DNA of 64,000 nt from NCBI GenBank assembly GCA_049303795.1, contig JBAQNM010000005.1:35228-99227 (forward strand). Reading direction: 5' to 3'. How positions within the stretch are numbered: position 1 is the first letter of the stretch; the number at the start of each line of letters is the position of its first letter. This DNA comes from Candidatus Moraniibacteriota bacterium (lineage in GTDB: Bacteria; Patescibacteriota; Minisyncoccia; Moranbacterales; UBA2206). Positions 27,190 to 39,782 of the stretch are shown one piece after another. Under the pieces are notes generated by a model. It saw only the letters and a list, made by a program, of their open reading frames with translations, ran no database searches and was not told the origin of the DNA. A program made the translations under genes and the position numbers.

Positions 27190-27573
27190 TTACTTTGTAA
27201 GTTGCGGAAAAATGTATGCGCAGCCCGATTCGCCGCAGGTAACCGTCAAATGACCACCGGGCCGGAAACTCGGAGTAATCATCTGGTACCACGTTCCTTC
27301 CGAGTCCTTCCAGAGGAAATTGAAGGCTTGGCCGCGATCCAGCTTGAAGCTGGTTTTCGCGCCGATTTTGTCCGGTGCCACACCGCGGACCTCGTCGTAA
27401 ATTTCTACGGTAACCAGGGTTGCACCGGCCGGCATGGGCGATATGGTCGTGTTTCCGTTTTCGTCACATGAAACGGTGACATCAACGTACTTGGCCGTCG
27501 CAAACGCGCTCCCGGTCACCAGCGTCATTAAACTCAAAAAAATCAGTACTGTCATCAATGCGGTTTTTTTCAT
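27190..27573 (-). CDS. Small secreted protein (signal peptide) encoded in the GC-rich island
   Basis: ATG at 27573 preceded by GAGGAGAC with a 7-nt spacer. Signal peptide MKKTALMTVLIFLSLMTLVTGSAFA. Four Cys in the mature part. A sigma70-like promoter is upstream and a compound hairpin plus U8 downstream. Confidence 0.55.
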   Translation of the reverse strand: MKKTALMTVLIFLSLMTLVTGSAFATAKYVDVTVSCDENGNTTISPMPAGATLVTVEIYDEVRGVAPDKIGAKTSFKLDRGQAFNFLWKDSEGTWYQMITPSFRPGGHLTVTCGESGCAYIFPQLTK

Positions 27574-27644
27574 GATACCTGTCTCCTCGTGTTGTTGGGT
27601 TTGTGTTTTTTGTTGTTAGTGTGCTTTCCATTCCTGAATATTGT

Positions 27645-27672
27645 ATTATACACAATCCCCACCAAAAGTCAA
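27645..27672 (-). promoter_or_regulatory. Promoter of the island small secreted-protein gene
   Basis: Minus strand: TTGACT (27672-27667), 16-bp spacer, TATAAT (27650-27645). The -35 sits in the loop of a CCCCAC/GTGGGG hairpin. Confidence 0.5.
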
Positions 27673-27749
27673 GTGGGGTAAAAACTATATATATCAACGA
27701 GCACTAGGTGCCCGATTTAGATATTGGGATTTTTCTTTTGGATTAAATA

Positions 27750-27838
27750 CTCGCCCACCACTCCAGCTCGTTATCCATCAAAAGAAAAATAATTTGTTAC
27801 ACCAAATGCCTGATAAGCTCGCCCACCACTCCAGCTCG
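27750..27838. repeat. Two copies of a 21-bp direct repeat CTCGCCCACCACTCCAGCTCG (27750-27770 and 27818-27838), 68-bp period
   Basis: Exact 21/21 match. The flanks after each copy are also similar (TTATCCAT versus CCTTATCAAT). Lies in GC-rich intergenic DNA of the island. Confidence 0.5.
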
Positions 27839-27899
27839 CCTTATCAATGCTATCGGTTTTTTTCCTGACGAAACGTCAGATTCGTTTCAGATCAACTTC

Positions 27900-29390
27900 C
27901 TAATAATTCAGAAGCTGTTTATTGGCGGGGATAACTTCCCGCATCTCTTGCACCATATAGGTGCTCTGAAAACGATTTTTCAATTCAACCCGGAGAAATA
28001 CTCCAGCGACCGTACTTCCAACTTCTTCGGAAATGTCGCTGTCCAAACAATAGTCCATGTTCGGCCCAAAGATGAGCCAATTATTGTATCTAAGTTCGGC
28101 GTTCAGGTTTGCACCCAAACGGTTTTCTTCCGGTTGATAACCGACCTGGACACCCAAGCGGGTTGCCCAGTTTTTATTCAGATCTCTGTGAATTTTTGCT
28201 CCCACATTGAACTGAGTAATGTCGGTTGCCTTATCGCCATCCCACGTTGAGTCAAAATTCTCACTAACATCAAACGTGGCTTCCGAATACAGAAGATACA
28301 TGTAGTCGGGATGAAACCGCCGCAGATAGTCCGCATAAGCTCCAATCAACATATGATCCTCTGTCTTCTTATATCCCACAGAATGGTTTTTGCCACTCAT
28401 ATGTTCGTACATGCCGCGGAGCAAAAACTCAAACTGATGGGGATAACCCTCATCAGTCATTCCACTCCAAATGAACCCAGCTTCTGGCCCAATCCCGGCA
28501 TTGTTCCAGCGATAACCAGAGTCGGTTTTTCCATCGTTACCGATAGCATACGCACCAACCACTGGGGTCAAAGTTCCGCCGAAGACCTGCTGTTCATTCT
28601 GGCAGTTTCGCAGGTAATACTTATACTGCAAGTACCACCAATCTCCATTGGACTCATCAGCTTTCCAAATTCCGCCACCCGCATCAAAAGTTTGTTCCTT
28701 GAAGCAGGTTTTTTCGATCTCCTTGGAAATGAAAATCGGCTGGAGCTCTTCCTTTTCAGAAATCGCCTCAACTTTTTTCCCTGGTTCCGGTATCAAAACC
28801 TTTGCAGGTTCTTTCCACCAGACCCAGTTTCCACACTTTAAGACTTTGGCAACGTGATAATCAAGAACGCCATAATCTTTCGATGTGTATATCATGCACT
28901 TCGGAAAATCGGTCAAAACATTTTTTGCAATCTTGTTTTTCCCGAAAGTGACCGCCTCAAGCCTTTTACCACTTGAGATATTTTTCCACTCAAAAACGCC
29001 ATTTTTGATATTCGTCAGAGCTGCTTTTTTCACAAATTCAGGAATCTCAAAATGGCTAATTGCCCACTCTGTCGATCCCGTATATTTGTCAGCTCCGACA
29101 CGTTGCCAAACCATTCCGTTAATACTAACCGGTTTTGATTTGGAAACTTTCTTTGCCGTTTTTACTCGCACGCTTCTCTCGGGCAAATTGATTTTCTGCC
29201 CGATCAGAATGTGCCTAGGGTTAGAAATTTGAGGATTAACTGCCTTCAGAGAAGCCAGCGTCACCCCATTTTTTTGAGCGATTCCCCAAAGGGTCTCGCC
29301 CGCCTTTACCCGATATTCCGCTGCTGCGATGGCTGTGCTCGAAAAGAGCATTACCACGAGCAACGAAATACCTAACCAGAATTTCTTCAT
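27900..29390 (-). CDS. Secreted LysM-domain protein with a large C-terminal beta-rich domain
   Basis: Signal peptide MKKFWLGISLLVVMLFSSTAIAA. LysM motif YRVKAGETLWGIAQKNGVTLASLKAVNP..ILIGQKINLP. C-terminal about 400 aa of unknown fold ending in an aromatic residue. Confidence 0.75.
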   Translation of the reverse strand: MKKFWLGISLLVVMLFSSTAIAAAEYRVKAGETLWGIAQKNGVTLASLKAVNPQISNPRHILIGQKINLPERSVRVKTAKKVSKSKPVSINGMVWQRVGADKYTGSTEWAISHFEIPEFVKKAALTNIKNGVFEWKNISSGKRLEAVTFGKNKIAKNVLTDFPKCMIYTSKDYGVLDYHVAKVLKCGNWVWWKEPAKVLIPEPGKKVEAISEKEELQPIFISKEIEKTCFKEQTFDAGGGIWKADESNGDWWYLQYKYYLRNCQNEQQVFGGTLTPVVGAYAIGNDGKTDSGYRWNNAGIGPEAGFIWSGMTDEGYPHQFEFLLRGMYEHMSGKNHSVGYKKTEDHMLIGAYADYLRRFHPDYMYLLYSEATFDVSENFDSTWDGDKATDITQFNVGAKIHRDLNKNWATRLGVQVGYQPEENRLGANLNAELRYNNWLIFGPNMDYCLDSDISEEVGSTVAGVFLRVELKNRFQSTYMVQEMREVIPANKQLLNY

Positions 29391-30340
29391 GGCTTGTCGC
29401 TCCTTTCGTTTAACAGTTTGATGTTTGCCGAATTACGTTTTTTGATTTCGTTTTCGGCGAGTTTTAACAGATATTCGTTGGCAAATGATTGTTCCCTCCT
29501 TGAAACTTCGGAGGAAAAATCTCTGCCTTTTGACGGCGCGCCAGTCGCGCGAATTAAATCCATCGCGAAACCGGCTGAGGTTGCTATGGCACTGCCTATT
29601 GGATTCACACCAACTTGAACAACAAATTTTCCAGTTCCTATAAGTTTTTGAAAATAGGTACTTTGTGGATTCTGTCCTCGAATAAGTGCCACTTCCTTAA
29701 ATCCATAGGGAGAAATAAGATAACCCTCCGGAAACTGGATTTGATTCCAGCTCCGAATTACTTCCTGAAAGCCTTTAATCCCTGTGAGTGAGCTGATTTT
29801 GAAATCCACCCCATCATCGATTTTATTGGCCTCCACAATTTTTTCCTTACGATAAACGTGATCCGTTAAAAATTTTTCCCGCTCAACTGGAATTTCCTTT
29901 TCAAACGGACTATAAATATAATTCATGTCCGTAGAAAGAATCACCAGCTGTCCGTCAGAAACATCGCCATCAAGCACCGCGGTTCCGAAATAATATCCCG
30001 AAGGATGCATTCCGGAAAACAGTATTTGTCCGAACGACTCCGAGCCATCATTTCTGATGACCCAAACGTTCCAGCGCAATGTGCCCAGAAAATATTCTCC
30101 ACCCAGAAGCCGTTTTGGAAAAACGACTGAATAAGTCGAAATGTCTCCTCTGCAAATCGCTGGCGTCGGCTCAAGCCCTAACGTCTGATGGGGCTTGATC
30201 AGCATTTGAATTTCGCCTTTTTCAGGCTGCTGATCCTGGACCGTTTTAATGTTTTTCATTTTCAGTCCGGTCGCACAACCCGTAAGGGCAACGACCAGCA
30301 ATAATAAAACAAAAACCTGCAAACTTTGATTTTTTTTCAT
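29387..30340 (-). CDS. Lipoprotein (hypothetical)
   Basis: Signal peptide with lipobox LLLLVVALTGCATG. 317 aa. 4-nt overlap with the LysM gene, so likely co-transcribed. Confidence 0.7.
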   Translation of the reverse strand: MKKNQSLQVFVLLLLVVALTGCATGLKMKNIKTVQDQQPEKGEIQMLIKPHQTLGLEPTPAICRGDISTYSVVFPKRLLGGEYFLGTLRWNVWVIRNDGSESFGQILFSGMHPSGYYFGTAVLDGDVSDGQLVILSTDMNYIYSPFEKEIPVEREKFLTDHVYRKEKIVEANKIDDGVDFKISSLTGIKGFQEVIRSWNQIQFPEGYLISPYGFKEVALIRGQNPQSTYFQKLIGTGKFVVQVGVNPIGSAIATSAGFAMDLIRATGAPSKGRDFSSEVSRREQSFANEYLLKLAENEIKKRNSANIKLLNERSDKP

Positions 30341-32457: not shown

Positions 32458-32500
32458 TATGAAAATAGCGCTTTCAAATTTCACTTCGAAAGCGCTATTG
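32458..32500 (-). terminator. atp operon terminator after atpC
   Basis: ATAGCGCTTTC-(12 nt)-GAAAGCGCTAT forms an 11-bp perfect stem. On the minus strand it is followed by UUUUCAUAAAU. Confidence 0.6.
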
Positions 32501-32516
32501 GGAAAACATAAGAATA

Positions 32517-32957
32517 CTACTCCATTCTCATGCCACCTCTCGTACGATGTCTCCTTGCCACTTTAATTCGAGCAGATTCTTTTTGAATAGCGGCAGCAAC
32601 ACGAGCATATTCATTTTCGTCCATTGAAACTCTTTGATTCTTGAGTTCTTCGGCTTTTTTTCGTCCTTCCTCAGCACGCTTCAAATCAATCTCCTCCGCT
32701 CGTTCTGCTGTATCAGCCAAAACAACAAGTTCATTGCCATGAAATTCAATAAAACCGCCGGAAATTGAAAGAAATATTTCTTTGTCATTCTTCTTAAGCA
32801 TCATCTCTCCGGCTTTAAGACTAGCAATATAGCTCCTATGATTTGGCAAAATTGTTATTTCTCCATCAGTGGTCGGCAAAGTCGCCTGATCAATCTCATC
32901 TTCAAAAACGGTTTTTTCTGGAGTGACTATTTTAAATTTTATTTTTAAATCTGTCAT
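32517..32957 (-). CDS. atpC: F1Fo ATP synthase epsilon subunit
   Basis: FKIVTPEKTVFEDEIDQATLPTTDGEITILPNHRSYIASLKAGEM...ISGGFIEFHGNELVVLAD is the canonical epsilon beta-sandwich. ATG at 32957, 11 nt after the atpD stop, is preferred over the track's TTG at 32993, which overlaps atpD. Confidence 0.85.
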   Translation of the reverse strand: MTDLKIKFKIVTPEKTVFEDEIDQATLPTTDGEITILPNHRSYIASLKAGEMMLKKNDKEIFLSISGGFIEFHGNELVVLADTAERAEEIDLKRAEEGRKKAEELKNQRVSMDENEYARVAAAIQKESARIKVARRHRTRGGMRME

Positions 32958-32967
32958 AAATTTTTTA

Positions 32968-34359
<1,392 letters not shown>

Positions 34360-34450
34360 TTAAATTTTTACTTTATTACAATTTATTAAATTCTAATCAC
34401 TAGCTATTTGCTTTATTTTAGCCAAATATTCACTGATTAGGATTTAAGGG

Positions 34451-34479
34451 TTGACTCTTTAGCAAACTTGGAGTATATT
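34451..34479 (+). promoter_or_regulatory. Promoter of the orphan small gene in the atpG-atpD gap
   Basis: TTGACT (34451-34456), 17-bp spacer, TATATT (34474-34479). Confidence 0.6.
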
Positions 34480-34541
34480 TACATGATTTAATTCCATGTA
34501 ATTAATTTCACAAAAATTCTTTAAGAAAAGGAGATGTGACT

Positions 34542-34706
34542 ATGAAAAATTTTATTATTGGATTAGGATTGGGACATGCGTTGGAAGCACTTTATGTACT
34601 TACAATGAATGTGCCACGTGAAAGTTTGGTCACCATTGCAGTATGCTGCTTTGCAATTTCGGCAGCATTAATTTTCTCAAAATTTAGGGAAAAAATATTT
34701 GGTTAA
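34542..34706 (+). CDS. Orphan 54-aa small hydrophobic protein gene with its own promoter, RBS and terminator, antisense within the atp operon gap
   Basis: TTGACT-17-TATATT promoter at 34451-34479. AAGGAG 8 nt before ATG 34542. ORF MKNFIIGLGLGHALEALYVLTMNVPRESLVTIAVCCFAISAALIFSKFREKIFG. Then a 12-bp stem hairpin plus T8 (34732-34772). Confidence 0.6.
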   Translation: MKNFIIGLGLGHALEALYVLTMNVPRESLVTIAVCCFAISAALIFSKFREKIFG

Positions 34707-34731
34707 ACTTAATACATTATTTTTTCCCGAA

Positions 34732-34772
34732 GCCGCTGACTCATCTATACCATGAGTTGGCGGTTTTTTTTA
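34732..34772 (+). terminator. Intrinsic terminator of the orphan small gene
   Basis: GCCGCTGACTCAT-CTATACC-ATGAGTTGGCGG forms a 12-bp stem (two G.U pairs) followed by T8. Confidence 0.7.
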
Positions 34773-34795
34773 TTTTCAATTTTCCAAAGAACTTC

Positions 34796-34900
34796 TATTG
34801 TCTGAACCACTGATTAGCATGTGATTATCCTGATTACACTGAAATTTTAATTCAGTGAAATCATGTGAGCTCATGTGATAATCAGTGGTTCAGATTATTG
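34796..34900. mobile_element. MITE-like element: 16-bp perfect terminal inverted repeats flanking about 62 bp, bracketed by TATTG direct repeats, abutting the atpG stop codon
   Basis: TIRs TCTGAACCACTGATTA (34801-34816) and TAATCAGTGGTTCAGA (34879-34894). TATTG at 34796-34800 and 34896-34900. The interior holds nested palindromes and three CATGTGA copies. No other copy seen in the window. Confidence 0.35.
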
Positions 34901-35854
34901 TTCAAGCGCCGCCATCCCCGCACTAATCTCCGCAATCTCTTGAGTAATTTTCATTTGACGAATTTGATTGTAGGCCAAAGTGAAATCATCGGCCATTTCT
35001 TTGGCAGCGTCCGTAGCGTTTCGCATGGCAACCATTCGAGCGGATTCTTTAGAAGCATTGGATTCCAAAATTGCATGATAGATCTGCATTTCAATGAGAC
35101 GTGGGATAATGTGATCCAAAACTTCCGCTGGACTTGGTTCAACCTTATATTCAGATTTTGGCTTCTTAAGTCCATATTCTTCCGCCAAAACATCCATCTC
35201 AGCCAATTGTTTTTCTAAGTCAATTTTTGAAAGTGGCAAAATTTGGCGCACTTTTGTTTCTTGCTTGATAGCGGAAACATAATCGGTATAGAAAATAACT
35301 ACCTTGTCATATTTTTTGGCTAGATAATCATCAATTACGACTTTCCCCACCGCTCGCACGGCTTCAAATTTTGGCAGATAGGTCAAATCATTAAACGAAG
35401 CAACAATTTCATTGCCAGTTCTCTTGACTACATTCTCCCCTTTTCTACCCACAGTAATAAAATCGATTTTCAATTCTTCATCAGTAATTTTTGATTCAAT
35501 TTTTTTGGTGCCGATTCGATTTATTTTCAAATTTTTTGGGTTAGCCAATTCTTCTTTGATTTTTTTGGTCAGTTGAGAATTGAATGATCCACAAAGTCCA
35601 CGGTTCGAAGTAATGGCAATGGCCAAAACACTTTTCACTTCGCGTACTTCCAAAAGTCCACCTTGTTTTTTTTCAAACGAACGCGCCAAGTTTGTGAGCA
35701 CACTCCAAGCACTATGAGCATACGGACGAATTGCCAGCACACTCGAAATAGCCCGGCGCATTTTTGCCGCACTCACCATTTCCATCGCCCGAGTAATTTT
35801 TCCAGTGTTCTGGATGGATTTTATTCGTCTTTTGATTTCTTTACCTGAAGCCAT
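34895..35854 (-). CDS. atpG: F1Fo ATP synthase gamma subunit
   Basis: N-terminal MASGKEIKRRIKSIQNTGKITRAMEMVSAAK and C-terminal ITQEIAEISAGMAALEQ helices typical of gamma. 319 aa. Confidence 0.9.
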   Translation of the reverse strand: MASGKEIKRRIKSIQNTGKITRAMEMVSAAKMRRAISSVLAIRPYAHSAWSVLTNLARSFEKKQGGLLEVREVKSVLAIAITSNRGLCGSFNSQLTKKIKEELANPKNLKINRIGTKKIESKITDEELKIDFITVGRKGENVVKRTGNEIVASFNDLTYLPKFEAVRAVGKVVIDDYLAKKYDKVVIFYTDYVSAIKQETKVRQILPLSKIDLEKQLAEMDVLAEEYGLKKPKSEYKVEPSPAEVLDHIIPRLIEMQIYHAILESNASKESARMVAMRNATDAAKEMADDFTLAYNQIRQMKITQEIAEISAGMAALEQ

Positions 35855-35874
35855 AAAATAATTTAATAAAATTA

Positions 35875-37383
35875 TTAGTTTCCGTTTTGATATATATCCT
35901 TAAAATCTTTAATCACTTTTTCCAGTTTTTCGATTATATCTTGGGTCAATTCTTTCTTCTCGGCAATCAATGTCAAAACTTCCTTGGCGCTGGAATCTAA
36001 ATATCTTTGGAAATCCGCTTCCCAAGCCTTTATCTTTGAAACTTCCACGTCATCCAAAAATCCGTTCGTGAGAGCATAGAGAATCGCTACCTGGTTTTCC
36101 ATTAGCATCGGTGCATATTGATCTTGTTTCAAAATTTCCACTGTTCTTCGGCCTCGTTCAATTTGGCGACGAGTGTTTTCATCGAGATCTGATCCAAATT
36201 GCGCAAAAGCTTCCAATTCTCGAAATTGCGCCAAGTCCAAACGAAGTTTTCCGGCCACTTTTTTCATCGCCTTAGTTTGCGCGGCTGATCCCACTCGAGA
36301 AACAGATAGCCCCACGTTCAAGGCTGGACGAATTCCTTTATAGAAAAGATCGGATTCCAAATAAATTTGCCCGTCAGTAATGGAAATAACATTAGTTGGA
36401 ATGTAGGCTGAAACATCACCTGCTTGTGTTTCAATGATTGGTAAGGCCGTGATTGATCCACCACCAAAATCTTTGTTTAGTTTAGCACTTCGCTCAAGAA
36501 GTCGAGAATGCAAATAGAAAACATCTCCTGGATAGGCTTCGCGTCCTGGTGGGCGCTTCAAGATCAAAGAAATTTGACGATAACTCCAAGCATGCTTGGA
36601 AAGATCATCGTAAATTACCAAAACATCTTCGCCTTTATCCATAAAATATTCTCCCAATGCGCAACCGGAATATGGAGCAACAAAAGAAAATGCCGCTGGA
36701 TCAGAAGCACCCGCCAAAACAATCGTGGTATATTCCATTGCACCTTTCTTTTCAAGTTCCGCAACAATTCGAGCAATCTTAGATTCTTTTTGCCCAATGG
36801 CCACATAGATGCATTTCATATTTTGACCTTTTTGATTGATAATTGCATCAATCGCAATGGCAGTCTTTCCAGTTTGGCGATCCCCAATGATAAGTTCGCG
36901 TTGTCCGCGTCCAACTGGGATCATCGCATCAATAGCCTTGATTCCGGTTTGCACTGGTTGATTAACAGATTGTCGAGTGATAACTCCCGGAGCAATTTTT
37001 TCAATTGGATAAAATTTATCAGAAACGATTTCTCCTTTGCCATCAATCGCTTGCCCCAAAGGATTGATTACTCGGCCGATCATATTTTCGCCTACAGGAA
37101 TCGACAAAATTTTTCCAGTTGATTTTACCTGATCACCTTCTTTGATTCCTGAGAATTCGCCCAAAATCATCGCACCGATTTGACCCTCTTCCAAGTTGAG
37201 CGCCACACCAAAAATTTCATTTGGAAACTCCAGCATTTCCGAAGCCATCACATCAGAGAGGCCAGAAATTTTGGCCACGCCGTCTCCAACTTCAAGCACC
37301 GTTCCAACTTTTTCAATTTGTGATTTATTTTCGAAACCTTCGATTTGTTTTTTCAACTGATCGATAATATAATTTTTATCCAT
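35875..37383 (-). CDS. atpA: F1Fo ATP synthase alpha subunit
   Basis: Walker [10 protein letters not shown]. 502 aa. Conserved alpha C-terminal helical domain. Confidence 0.95.
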
Positions 37384-37403
37384 AAAAATATATTTTTAAA
37401 ATT

Positions 37404-37805
37404 TTACTTAGTTAATTCTTTATTTAACTTTCTTAATTGCCCCTTAATACTCTGATCCAGAATATCGTCGCCCACTCTAATAATTATCCCCCCAACAACA
37501 TTCTCATCAATTTTTCTATTAATTAAAACTTTTTCTACTTTATATTTTCTTTTAATATATTCTTCAATTTTTTTCTCAGTCTCATCGTCCAGTTTTTCCC
37601 TGCTTATCAACTCCGCCTCAGCAACCTTATTTTTAATATTCCAAATACCATTAAAACTTTCCAAAATTTTTGGAAATAATTTACTTTGCCTATTTTTTCG
37701 AACAATTTGAGTAAAATTAAATACAGTCTTATCTACTTCTTGCGATGACTTATTTTCAGTTAACTCATAAAGGGTTCTCGCATATTGATTGGCAGTAATT
37801 TTCAT
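37404..37805 (-). CDS. atpH: F1Fo ATP synthase delta (OSCP) subunit, compact 133-aa form
   Basis: N-terminal ANQYARTLYEL and C-terminal VVGGIIIRVGDDILDQSIKGQLRKL match the delta/OSCP signature. Position between atpF and atpA. Confidence 0.7.
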   Translation of the reverse strand: MKITANQYARTLYELTENKSSQEVDKTVFNFTQIVRKNRQSKLFPKILESFNGIWNIKNKVAEAELISREKLDDETEKKIEEYIKRKYKVEKVLINRKIDENVVGGIIIRVGDDILDQSIKGQLRKLNKELTK

Positions 37806-37919
37806 AAACTATTTTTAATATCTTTATTATTCTTTCAATTCCTTTTTTTATTTTTTCTTTAAAATATCGTAACAGAGCACCTATTTATTATTTAGTAAAA
37901 TCACATAAAAGTCAACCTT

Positions 37920-38414
37920 CTAAATTTTCTCTTCTACGATCTTATCGATAGCCTCTTTATCATTCAATTTATCGATATTTTTTGTAATAATTTTTTCAGT
38001 AGCCAGCATTACAAGCCCTGCCACCTCACCTTTTGCCTCGTTTATTATTCTATTTTTCTCTTGAAGCGCTTTTTTCTCAGATGATTCCAATATTCTTCGT
38101 GATTCATCTTCGGCTTTTTTTATTATCTCTTCCTGATTTCTTTGTGCCAGTTCCGTAGAAGAACTCACTATTTTTTGTGCCTCTTTTTTAGCAGAAACAA
38201 TAATCTCCTTTTCTTTTTGATTAGCTTTTTCCAGTTTATCTTCAACTAGCCTTGCATTATTAAGCCCTCCTTCTATTTTTTTTCTTCGCTCATCAATAAA
38301 CTTTATAATTGGTCCGTATCCAAATTTATGCAATATCCAAACTAACAGACCAAAATTAATAAGTTGCGCCAATAAAATTTTCCAATTTAATCCCAAAGCT
38401 TCAAAAAGTTTCAT
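37920..38414 (-). CDS. atpF: F1Fo ATP synthase subunit b
   Basis: Single N-terminal TM (LLAQLINFGLLVWILHKFGY) then a long charged helix. 164 aa. Positioned between atpE and atpH. Confidence 0.8.
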   Translation of the reverse strand: MKLFEALGLNWKILLAQLINFGLLVWILHKFGYGPIIKFIDERRKKIEGGLNNARLVEDKLEKANQKEKEIIVSAKKEAQKIVSSSTELAQRNQEEIIKKAEDESRRILESSEKKALQEKNRIINEAKGEVAGLVMLATEKIITKNIDKLNDKEAIDKIVEEKI

Positions 38415-38496
38415 GTTTTTTTCTTAAAATATTATTATTAAAAAATAAATTAGTTCAGCCTTTTTTATTTCTAAAAAAAGCTAGACTATTTATCTC

Positions 38497-38733
<237 letters not shown>

Positions 38734-38762
38734 TTAAATTAATTATTTATTATTATTTAAAA

Positions 38763-39521
38763 TTAAACCCTAACCTCTTCTCTTTTCTCTTTTTTTTCAA
38801 TTTCACAGGCCATAGAAATAAATATCAGTGTCAAAAGAGAAAAAACAAATGCTTGAATAACAGCCGTCAGAAGTCCCAAAAAAGCAAATGGCAATGGAAT
38901 AATAAAGGGGGCGAGAAAAAGAATCACCGATCCCAAAACTTCACCAGCAAAAATATTTCCAAAAAGTCTGAATGACAAGGAAAGAACCTTGGCTATCTCT
39001 CCAATTAAATCCATAATGCCTAAAACAAAAGCCAGGGGGCTTTTAAAGTTGATGAATTTACCAATATAACCAAATGGGCCATGCACGAAAATTGTGACTA
39101 TTTGAACAGTTATAATCGATATCATTGTCAGAACAAATACCATACCATAATCTGACATAATCGCTCTAAATGGAACGATATCTCCATTTTTAGTGTGAAT
39201 CAAGACTGCGGCTTGTCCTGGAATAAATGTGATGAGATTGGCAAAAACAATAAAAATAAACATAGTAAAGATCAAAGGGAAAACCCTTCGCGCCTTCTCT
39301 TTGTTTCCCATGATACTTTCAACCAACCTCATCCCCTCTTCGATGAGAAGCTCTAGGACAGCCTGCGCTCTTCCAGGAACTGCCTTAAGAGAAAAACGCA
39401 TAGCCAGTGTGATAACAATCAAAATTACACTTAAAATAACTGACCAAAATAAAGTATTAGTCACCGGCAAAGAGCCTAGATTGAAAAGTATTTGAGGAGC
39501 AAGAGATATGTCTAGTTTCAT
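38763..39521 (-). CDS. atpB: F1Fo ATP synthase subunit a
   Basis: Conserved FRLFGNIFAGEVL with the essential Arg. 252 aa polytopic. Confidence 0.9.
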   Translation of the reverse strand: MKLDISLAPQILFNLGSLPVTNTLFWSVILSVILIVITLAMRFSLKAVPGRAQAVLELLIEEGMRLVESIMGNKEKARRVFPLIFTMFIFIVFANLITFIPGQAAVLIHTKNGDIVPFRAIMSDYGMVFVLTMISIITVQIVTIFVHGPFGYIGKFINFKSPLAFVLGIMDLIGEIAKVLSLSFRLFGNIFAGEVLGSVILFLAPFIIPLPFAFLGLLTAVIQAFVFSLLTLIFISMACEIEKKEKREEVRV

Positions 39522-39527
39522 ATAAGA

Positions 39528-39782
39528 TTATTTCTTAGTTGCTTTGCTTTTATCTAGAACCATCTTTTTTGATAAAACATTTCGCTTTTTGAAAAGCAAG
39601 ACATTTGAAACCAAAAAAGAAATTCCGATGCTTATAAGTAAAAATTTCGGACTGGAGTTAAAATTTCTATCTGCGACGTAACCGATTACTCCCAAAAAAA
39701 TCATTGGACCAAAAATATACATACCGCTATATGTCGCTACTTTAAAAAATATCTTCATAACTTTTTCGTCTTTAAAAAACAT
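39528..39782 (-). CDS. AtpZ/AtpI-like small membrane protein (ATP synthase protein I family)
   Basis: 84 aa with two TM helices. GPMIFLGVIGYVADRNFN pattern. Immediately upstream of atpB. Confidence 0.5.
   Translation of the reverse strand: MFFKDEKVMKIFFKVATYSGMYIFGPMIFLGVIGYVADRNFNSSPKFLLISIGISFLVSNVLLFKKRNVLSKKMVLDKSKATKK

Follow-up and report, generated by a model that had tools for sequence, protein, structure and literature searches.

The spacer between the ATP synthase genes atpG and atpD of Candidatus Moraniibacteriota, a member of the Patescibacteria (Candidate Phyla Radiation, CPR), contains a small transcription unit that runs opposite to the operon. We analyzed a 64-kb stretch of contig JBAQNM010000005.1 (hereafter the window), which carries a complete F1Fo operon on its minus strand; the antisense unit lies inside the 547-nt spacer that separates atpG from atpD (34348-34894). 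Judged from its sequence, the unit is probably a genuine gene with its own expression signals, encoding a 54-amino-acid (aa) membrane protein that is restricted to one species and has two predicted transmembrane (TM) helices; it is the variable cargo of a conserved antisense slot resembling a phage "moron." The slot brackets its cargo with a palindrome, a promoter, a leader, and a Shine–Dalgarno (SD) sequence ahead of it and a terminator tail behind it, and the atpG–atpD junction is an insertion hot spot across Patescibacteria. The evidence is a complete strand-specific unit, an open reading frame (ORF) with native coding statistics, a slot that is conserved while its cargo turns over, and the statistics of long gaps across the phylum.

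A complete strand-specific unit in the atpG–atpD spacer

The unit starts with a sigma-70-type promoter on the plus strand (TTGACT-17-TATATT, 34451-34479), with the −35 hexamer at 34451-34456 and the −10 hexamer at 34474-34479, and this promoter matches the consensus at 10 of 12 positions. It is among eight sites of this quality within the 8 kb scanned. The pattern TTGACT...TGnTATAAT fits the general consensus of the genome and some phage promoters, and the promoter alone is not diagnostic. A predicted 5' untranslated region of about 55 nt (34486-34541, with the transcription start placed from the sequence) leads to the SD sequence AAGGAG (34528-34533), 8 nt ahead of the ATG at 34542. Such a signal is out of the ordinary in this genome and probably meaningful, because none of the eight atp genes carries an SD motif, their upstream regions being A/T-rich (e.g., aaaaatattATG; window 32500-39600), and only 2 of the 49 long ORFs of the window have an SD-like 4-mer. 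UUCUUU (34517-34522) is able to pair with AAAGGA over the SD sequence, and the resulting 6-bp hairpin may damp translation; with a leader that folds at just −7 kcal/mol (z 0.44), the SD sequence would be only weakly masked. The same layout, UUCUUU...AAAAGGAGA, is seen again in other loci (L009, L119a, and L093).

The 54-codon ORF (34542-34703, with the stop codon TAA at 34704-34706) encodes a predicted two-helix membrane hairpin. A 3' hairpin, GGGAAAAAAUA...UAUUUUUUCCC (34684-34731, plus strand; inverted repeat I3), extends across the stop codon and is part of the minimum free energy fold of the whole transcript. It is followed by an intrinsic terminator (34729-34775) with a stem at 34729-34767, which has 12 core pairs, or 16 counting its extension, and a T8 run at 34764-34771. 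The terminator folds with −21.6 kcal/mol (z −6.9) on the plus strand and with −14.1 kcal/mol on the atp strand, where two G-U pairs turn into A-C mismatches, an internal loop appears, and the U tail is absent; it should thus halt the antisense transcript only. The promoter, leader, SD sequence, 54-aa ORF, and 12-bp-stem/T8 terminator that the initial annotation had described are each present where it placed them, as is the self-contained, antisense organization of the unit.

The terminator runs into a conserved tail, TTTTTTTTATTTTCAATTTTCCAAAGAACTTCTATTG (TTTTTTTATTTTCAATTTTCCAAAGAACTTCT; 34764-34800, plus strand), which occurs once in the window. Next comes a long, near-perfect, REPIN-like hairpin of 94 nt (34801-34894; inverted repeat I1), which begins at the base right after the atpG stop codon and folds with −42 to −48 kcal/mol (z about −9). 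Trailed by UUAUUGUU on the plus strand, this hairpin may back up the terminator. The end of the small transcript is 127 nt short of atpG, and the transcript would therefore be antisense to spacer read-through RNA only; the mutual antisense relationship put forward in the initial annotation would hold for such RNA and not for the atp coding sequence. At the other end, a 62-nt palindromic element (34386-34447; inverted repeat I2), with 25-nt arms TTAAATTCTAATCACTAGCTATTTG and CAAATATTCACTGATTAGGATTTAA, ends 3 nt upstream of the −35 hexamer; its folding energy is −16.5 to −17.1 kcal/mol for both strands, with z near −4.1. We found no promoter-like site on the atp strand within 34348-34894, and a scan together with inspection by eye from the palindrome to the atpD ATG gave no sigma-70-like or otherwise convincing atpD promoter on that strand.

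Coding statistics and homology of the 54-aa protein

The product of the ORF is MKNFIIGLGLGHALEALYVLTMNVPRESLVTIAVCCFAISAALIFSKFREKIFG. Compared with the long ORFs of the genome, its codon-usage log-odds score is +11.8 bits in frame, and the other five frames score from −40 to +0.2. Native 54-codon windows give 15.9 ± 5.5 bits versus about −3 ± 5.7 bits for composition-matched, stop-free random ORFs, only 0.2-0.4% of which attain 11.8 bits. A stretch of 54 codons would stay open by chance with a probability of about 1.3% in any one frame, and two TM segments (hydrophobic 19-mers) occur in 1.6-5% of matched random ORFs. The GC contents at the three codon positions (0.41/0.37/0.26, that is, GC1 > GC2 > GC3) follow the pattern typical of coding sequence, the overall GC content of the ORF is 0.35, and the GC skew flips locally to the sign of plus-strand coding. 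By these measures, the ORF looks translated. AlphaFold2, run on the single sequence, predicted helices at residues 2-23 and 26-53 that meet at Val-Pro, with a mean predicted local distance difference test score of 82.6. Tryptic coverage of the peptide is expected to be poor, with MKNFIIGLGLGHALEALYVLTMNVPR as a targetable segment.

The ORF corresponds to the NCBI hypothetical protein WAV31_01905 of a Ca. Moraniibacteriota metagenome-assembled genome, and its cluster is recorded from 4 contigs with lengths reaching 355 kb. Six same-species contigs carry the ORF, the four shown being identical copies, and the gap contains no single-nucleotide polymorphism among same-species contigs; all 10 differences of strain variant L004 are in atpD.

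Apart from the protein itself, no homologue of the 54-aa peptide was found in 5.8 billion protein clusters by a word-indexed search or among 1.84 billion representatives by an exhaustive phmmer search. No match was obtained in NCBIfam, PHROGs, PADLOC, or the PDB sequences, and Pfam, at E-values up to 10, gave only a sub-threshold match to Herpes_U26. The ATP synthase accessory families AtpI (PF03899) and AtpZ/ATPase_gene1 (PF09527) gave no profile match in Pfam and NCBIfam. The single weak match, P0002 (490 aa, E 2.4e-4), was rejected, as it is a repetitive Ig-like protein aligned over 33 residues at 30% identity. At the nucleotide level, a search of 34200-35000 against Rfam in E-value mode returned only sub-threshold matches of the miRNA-hairpin type to the long hairpin. 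By these searches, the 54-aa protein is an orphan confined to its species.

Conserved expression signals and replaced cargo in close relatives

The closest relative, L005 (AtpG 95% identical), has a 62-nt atpG–atpD spacer and no cassette; it retains one arm of the 94-nt hairpin, fused to its stop codon, and neither a target-site duplication nor a clean boundary between the empty and filled states is definable against it. L006 (AtpG 93%) and L085 (AtpG 90%) carry a cassette at the same place as the window. Their promoter–palindrome blocks are 91-94% identical to that of the window over 80-101 nt, their terminator tails are 95-97% identical, and the terminator stem is common to both, whereas the cargo is an unrelated 94-aa protein with two TM helices in L006 and a 136-aa signal-peptide protein, likewise confined to its own species, in L085. 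Between the window and L006, similarity ends shortly past the −10 hexamer and picks up again at the T-tract of the terminator. The initial annotation had named conservation of the RNA without conservation of the ORF across relatives as an outcome that would refute its proposal, and this is the outcome observed: the non-coding signals are conserved and the ORF is not.

The block is kept with yet other cargo in L009, L021, L119, and L122, and a promoter of the form TTGACT(T)TTT...TGGAGTATAAT or TGnTATAAT precedes the antisense ORFs of L006, L009, L119 (two copies), L099, L093, L021, and others. Among relatives, the cargo of the slot includes the secreted 136-aa protein, a 173-aa protein with four TM helices, a PQ-loop-like protein, and soluble proteins. 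Shorter matches to the tail were found in L021, L012 (atpH–atpA cassette), L119, L122, and L017. Fourfold degenerate sites of atpA, atpG, and atpD are 51-68% identical between the window and L006 or L085; against L009 or L119 they are 19-40% identical and saturated, with the block still at about 73%. Because the identity of the block exceeds that of fourfold sites, the non-coding signals are either under purifying selection or recently shared, with the ORF replaced between them.

A covariance model of the palindrome (R1), built from seven loci, found the element only beside antisense promoters in atp gaps. Its matches lie in the atpG–atpD gaps of the window, L006, L085, L009, L122, L021, and L119 and in the atpH–atpA gaps of L119 (2262-2328) and L012 (2134-2199), each of which holds a second complete antisense cassette. 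The identity of the palindrome to that of the window is 91-94% in L006 and L085 and about 73% in L009 and L119. In eight of nine cases, the palindrome stands 3-6 nt from the −35 hexamer, its distance from the downstream start codon being 22-150 nt; it therefore belongs to the antisense promoter and not to the atpD or atpA start. Compensatory changes are present at 4-6 of its pairs, and RNAalifold supports covariation on both strands (−8.8 versus −12.5 kcal/mol); the element may be an operator, an RNA or DNA hairpin, or a recombination site.

The two cassettes of L119 are 91-92% alike in their promoter–palindrome ends, compared with 73-77% to other species, and their tails are 100% identical over 23 nt. 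The atpH–atpA cassette of L119 comes after a long hairpin that follows atpH and is homologous to 34801-34894. L118 has a further homologue of this hairpin behind atpG, and in L085 and L101 the homologue precedes atpG by about 2.1-2.3 kb. The palindrome and the 94-nt hairpin each occur once in the 64-kb window, with extra copies at other atp junctions of relatives. Within the atpH–atpA cassette of L119 (1717-1950), the tail-plus-terminator module is tandemly duplicated, and each duplicate adjoins a GGTTCAAGTC hairpin similar to the T-arm of a tRNA.

Viral contigs scanned for the promoter and tail motifs yielded three generic strong phage promoters and no cassette. One IMG/VR contig (L165, 894-960) has TTGACTTTTTCCGAAATTTGGAGTATAAT, a short leader, GAAAAGGAGA, and then an ATG, a style of promoter, leader, and SD sequence close to that of the cassettes; a second similar unit follows 330 nt downstream, and palindrome and tail are both absent.

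The atpG–atpD junction as a hot spot in Patescibacteria

Genome and metagenome collections, scanned with AtpG as the anchor, contributed 160 loci, and 84 Patescibacteria loci hold both atpG and atpD. The spacer between the two genes is at least 200 nt long in 41 of these 84 loci and at least 400 nt long in 33, the longest measuring 2275 nt, whereas each of the other six atp junctions reaches 400 nt in only 0 to 4 loci. A long gap is thus typical of the phylum, and the atpG–atpD junction is its specific hot spot. The gap had initially been described as unusual, which is correct for bacteria generally but not for Patescibacteria, and the suggested comparison with relatives gave a divided answer: the junction is 62 nt long in L005 and below 200 nt in 43 of the 84 loci, and it is long in the other 41.

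Near-consensus promoters in the long gaps are nearly all antisense. An antisense ORF of at least 45 aa with an SD sequence and an ATG was found in 23 of 41 distinct long gaps, compared with 5 in the sense orientation. A promoter-like site lies upstream in 22 of these 23 cases, and 17 of the predicted products are membrane or secreted proteins, judged by one or more TM segments or by a signal peptide. Terminators were detected in 5 of the 23 antisense units by a strict perfect-stem finder, which missed ones visible by eye in L006, L009, and L085, so that this count is no estimate of how frequent terminators are at the other loci.

An all-versus-all BLASTP comparison of 90 gap ORFs revealed no family among the antisense cargo, which also contained no Pfam family bar one weak PQ-loop match. 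The only recurring families among these ORFs were DUF559 and four-helix-bundle proteins, both on the sense strand. Sense-strand insertions look selfish, comprising DUF559 endonucleases, four-helix-bundle proteins of the type found in 23S intervening sequences, and a NUDIX protein; they are located at the atpG–atpD junction in L009, L124, L097/L098, and L014, at atpD–atpC in L031, L033, and L036, at atpE–atpF in L088, and at atpA–atpG in L113. The antisense cargo of L110, L035, and L122 has in common a (V/I)NTWL(S/K)ENP motif, after which comes a hydrophobic strand at the C-terminus; this trio and a paralogue pair inside L011 are the sole hints of a recurring antisense cargo family. Two more cargo proteins, one group shared by L011 and L110, combine a signal peptide with a stretch rich in His and a TM segment at the C-terminus.

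The operon and its neighborhood

The genes of the operon, all on the minus strand, are atpB (38763-39521), atpE (38497-38724), atpF (37920-38414), atpH (37404-37805), atpA (35875-37383), atpG (gamma subunit, PF00231; 34895-35854), atpD (beta subunit; 32968-34347), and atpC, which ends at 32517. The slot is thus flanked upstream, in the sense of the operon, by atpG and downstream by atpD, whose A/T-rich leader is without an SD sequence. A promoter-like TTGACT-17-AATAAT in the sense orientation lies in the atpF–atpH spacer (37887-37915, minus strand) and may be an internal atp promoter. In atpD, the 10 differences of L004 (SRR28062869) all fall inside 82 nt (33826-33907), with none elsewhere in 1.6 kb; they are spaced in multiples of 3, hence at the same codon position, and resemble a short recombination tract. 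At about 27190-30340 (minus strand), three successive genes with strong SD sequences and signal peptides look like an acquired island. They encode a 127-aa protein (GC 0.52), a 496-aa LysM-like protein (GC 0.45), and a 317-aa lipoprotein (GC 0.43), and the rest of the window has a GC content of about 0.30-0.40; one of them has a TTGACT-16-TATAAT promoter and a long leader.

Discussion

If the unit is an expressed gene, sigma-70 RNA polymerase would start near 34486, and ribosomes would load at AAGGAG for SD-dependent translation, which would be unusual next to atp genes devoid of SD sequences. The product would enter the membrane as a helical hairpin, and its basic C-terminal tail, SKFREK, suggests that both termini face the cytoplasm. 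Together with the 94-nt hairpin as a backup, the one-way terminator would shield atpG from antisense transcription, and atp-sense transcription could still read through the unit to atpD. The protein itself would be accessory and dispensable for the ATP synthase, and the slot would persist and turn over because its location between two highly conserved genes does no harm and because selection maintains its conserved signals.

Several points weigh against this interpretation. The expression of the unit is deduced from its sequence signals. The stronger conservation of the non-coding signals than of the ORF fits a function at the level of transcription as well. T-rich random ORFs often look hydrophobic, and 27-44% of them have at least one TM segment. 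Population data say little about the ORF, since the four same-species contigs shown are identical, and the absence of a homologue leaves no Ka/Ks test of it. Every sampled locus was atp-centered, which biases the apparent specificity of the slot for the atp operon, and the loci are phylogenetically non-independent, so that the 23:5 orientation count overstates its significance.

One alternative, which we consider unlikely, is that the unit acts at the level of transcription and carries its ORF only incidentally. Transcription from a strong antisense promoter, running toward that of atpBEFHAG, would then meet read-through polymerases, or its transcript would pair with spacer RNA, tuning or uncoupling the expression of atpDC relative to the upstream genes (or tuning atpA when the unit is upstream of atpA). 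The block and tail are conserved far beyond neutral expectation while the ORF is swapped; the module lies directly upstream of the genes for the three-copy catalytic subunits, atpD and, in L119 and L012, atpA; the terminator and hairpin are one-way, permitting atp-sense read-through; and the gap has no detectable sigma-70-like atpD promoter. However, every cargo has an SD sequence and an ATG, its ORF (up to 173 aa) takes up the whole transcript, and the ORF of the window uses native codons. Moreover, L005 and about half of the phylum do without the cassette, and the palindrome keeps its fixed distance to the antisense −35 hexamer rather than to the atpD or atpA start.

It is rather improbable that the unit is a mobile or copy-and-paste element, past or present, of the miniature inverted-repeat transposable element (MITE), REPIN, or IS200/IS605-PATE (palindrome-associated transposable element) type, in which a hairpin-to-palindrome module carries passenger genes and targets atp intergenic hairpins. 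Hairpin-forming repeats stand at both ends, both containing CTAATCAGTG in the window, and the hairpin appears at different atp junctions in different genomes. The ends of the two L119 cassettes are more alike than either is to those of other species, and conserved ends with variable cargo could mean recent spread rather than selection. Yet each repeat is present only once in the window, no transposase or recombinase is linked to it, and the comparison with L005 gives no target-site duplication or clean empty-versus-filled boundary. The ends are alike for about 10 nt at most, and not at all in L119, and the shared position in the window, L006, and L085 fits descent over repeated insertion.

The initial annotation had also offered a toxin of a type I toxin–antitoxin (TA) pair. 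Here, a small hydrophobic toxin would be restrained by antisense RNA from atp read-through, which agrees with the size and hydrophobicity of the 54-aa peptide, the self-contained unit with its long leader, the 6-bp hairpin that can mask the SD sequence, and the possible full overlap with any atpG-to-atpD read-through RNA. We regard this as very unlikely because no promoter for an antisense RNA was found on the opposite strand, so that only operon read-through could supply it, and because the slot cargo of relatives is secreted, PQ-loop-like, soluble, or a four-TM protein; in addition, the predicted masking of the SD sequence is weak, two TM helices are predicted where one is usual, and no toxin family or PADLOC model was matched. 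Finally, its suggestion of a micro-protein or regulator of the ATP synthase, which we considered as an AtpI/AtpZ-type assembly factor or an AtpTheta-type inhibitor, is scarcely tenable, since, for all that a membrane hairpin is encoded within the atp operon, the closest relative lacks the unit, L006 and L085 have unrelated proteins instead, the gene is on the opposite strand, and no protein search gave a homologue or a match to ATP synthase accessory families in Pfam or NCBIfam.

Phage morons, a concept of Hendrix and Juhala, are autonomous promoter–ORF–terminator insertions in phage genomes. The antisense unit resembles them in bringing along its own promoter and factor-independent terminator for its ORF, in flanking genes that are direct neighbors in relatives, and in a cargo that is unrelated between genomes and often a small membrane or secreted protein with no assigned function. 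Unlike morons, it resides in a housekeeping operon of a CPR chromosome and matches no phage family in PHROGs; its base composition and codon usage are native, whereas moron composition is usually deviant; and its promoter side and terminator tail are conserved across species, with only the ORF varying and with a consistent antisense orientation. Type I TA loci such as hok/sok, tisB/istR, and fst/RNAII share the small hydrophobic peptide, the self-contained intergenic unit, the long leader, and a possible antisense overlap, but the dedicated antisense RNA promoter is missing here, the strong SD sequence is predicted to be little masked, a single TM helix is the norm among known toxins whereas two are predicted here, and the cargo of the slot in relatives is not toxin-like.

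The 94-nt hairpin and the 62-nt palindrome, as long imperfect inverted repeats between operon genes that recur at other junctions of relatives, are reminiscent of repetitive extragenic palindromes (REP), REPINs, and bacterial interspersed mosaic elements (BIME). REPIN-type repeats come in many dispersed copies per genome with an associated REP-associated tyrosine transposase (RAYT); here, the 64-kb window has one copy of each element, no RAYT-type transposase was seen, and the palindrome is tied to a promoter. As in integron cassettes, an ORF is swapped between conserved boundaries, one of them an imperfect palindrome. The unit differs from such cassettes in having its own promoter and terminator, in a palindrome upstream of the promoter instead of downstream of the ORF, and in the lack of attC cores by eye; no integrase turned up, though no systematic integrase search was made. 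Cyanobacteria and chloroplasts have split atp operons in which the genes for the beta and epsilon subunits are transcribed apart. The break in continuity is likewise immediately before the beta-subunit gene in the window, but the genes stay adjacent, an antisense gene fills the break, and the break is polymorphic among close relatives.

Beyond the single gene, we tentatively suggest, as a possibility still short of likely, that selection maintains, within the ATP synthase operon of Moraniibacteriota, an antisense slot for expression just ahead of atpD and in some cases of atpA, whose signals are preserved while the ORF is repeatedly replaced or newborn. Such a slot may serve as a nursery or exchange site for orphan membrane proteins, as a means of tuning the catalytic subunits at the level of transcription, or as both. 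We found no account of such an arrangement in the literature searched.

For annotation, a long atpG–atpD spacer in Patescibacteria should be taken as normal, and it usually houses a small antisense gene. CPR genomes are rich in small orphan membrane proteins of unexplained origin, and here one of them occupies a well-delimited slot open to comparison between species, where the expression signals are kept more strongly than the synonymous sites of an essential operon and the coding content is different in each species examined. The locus therefore bears on the birth and exchange of orphan genes in reduced genomes and on antisense effects on subunit stoichiometry, and its interest would grow if the slot proved to be a selected site of cassette exchange, to give rise to genes de novo, or to regulate the expression of the catalytic subunits.

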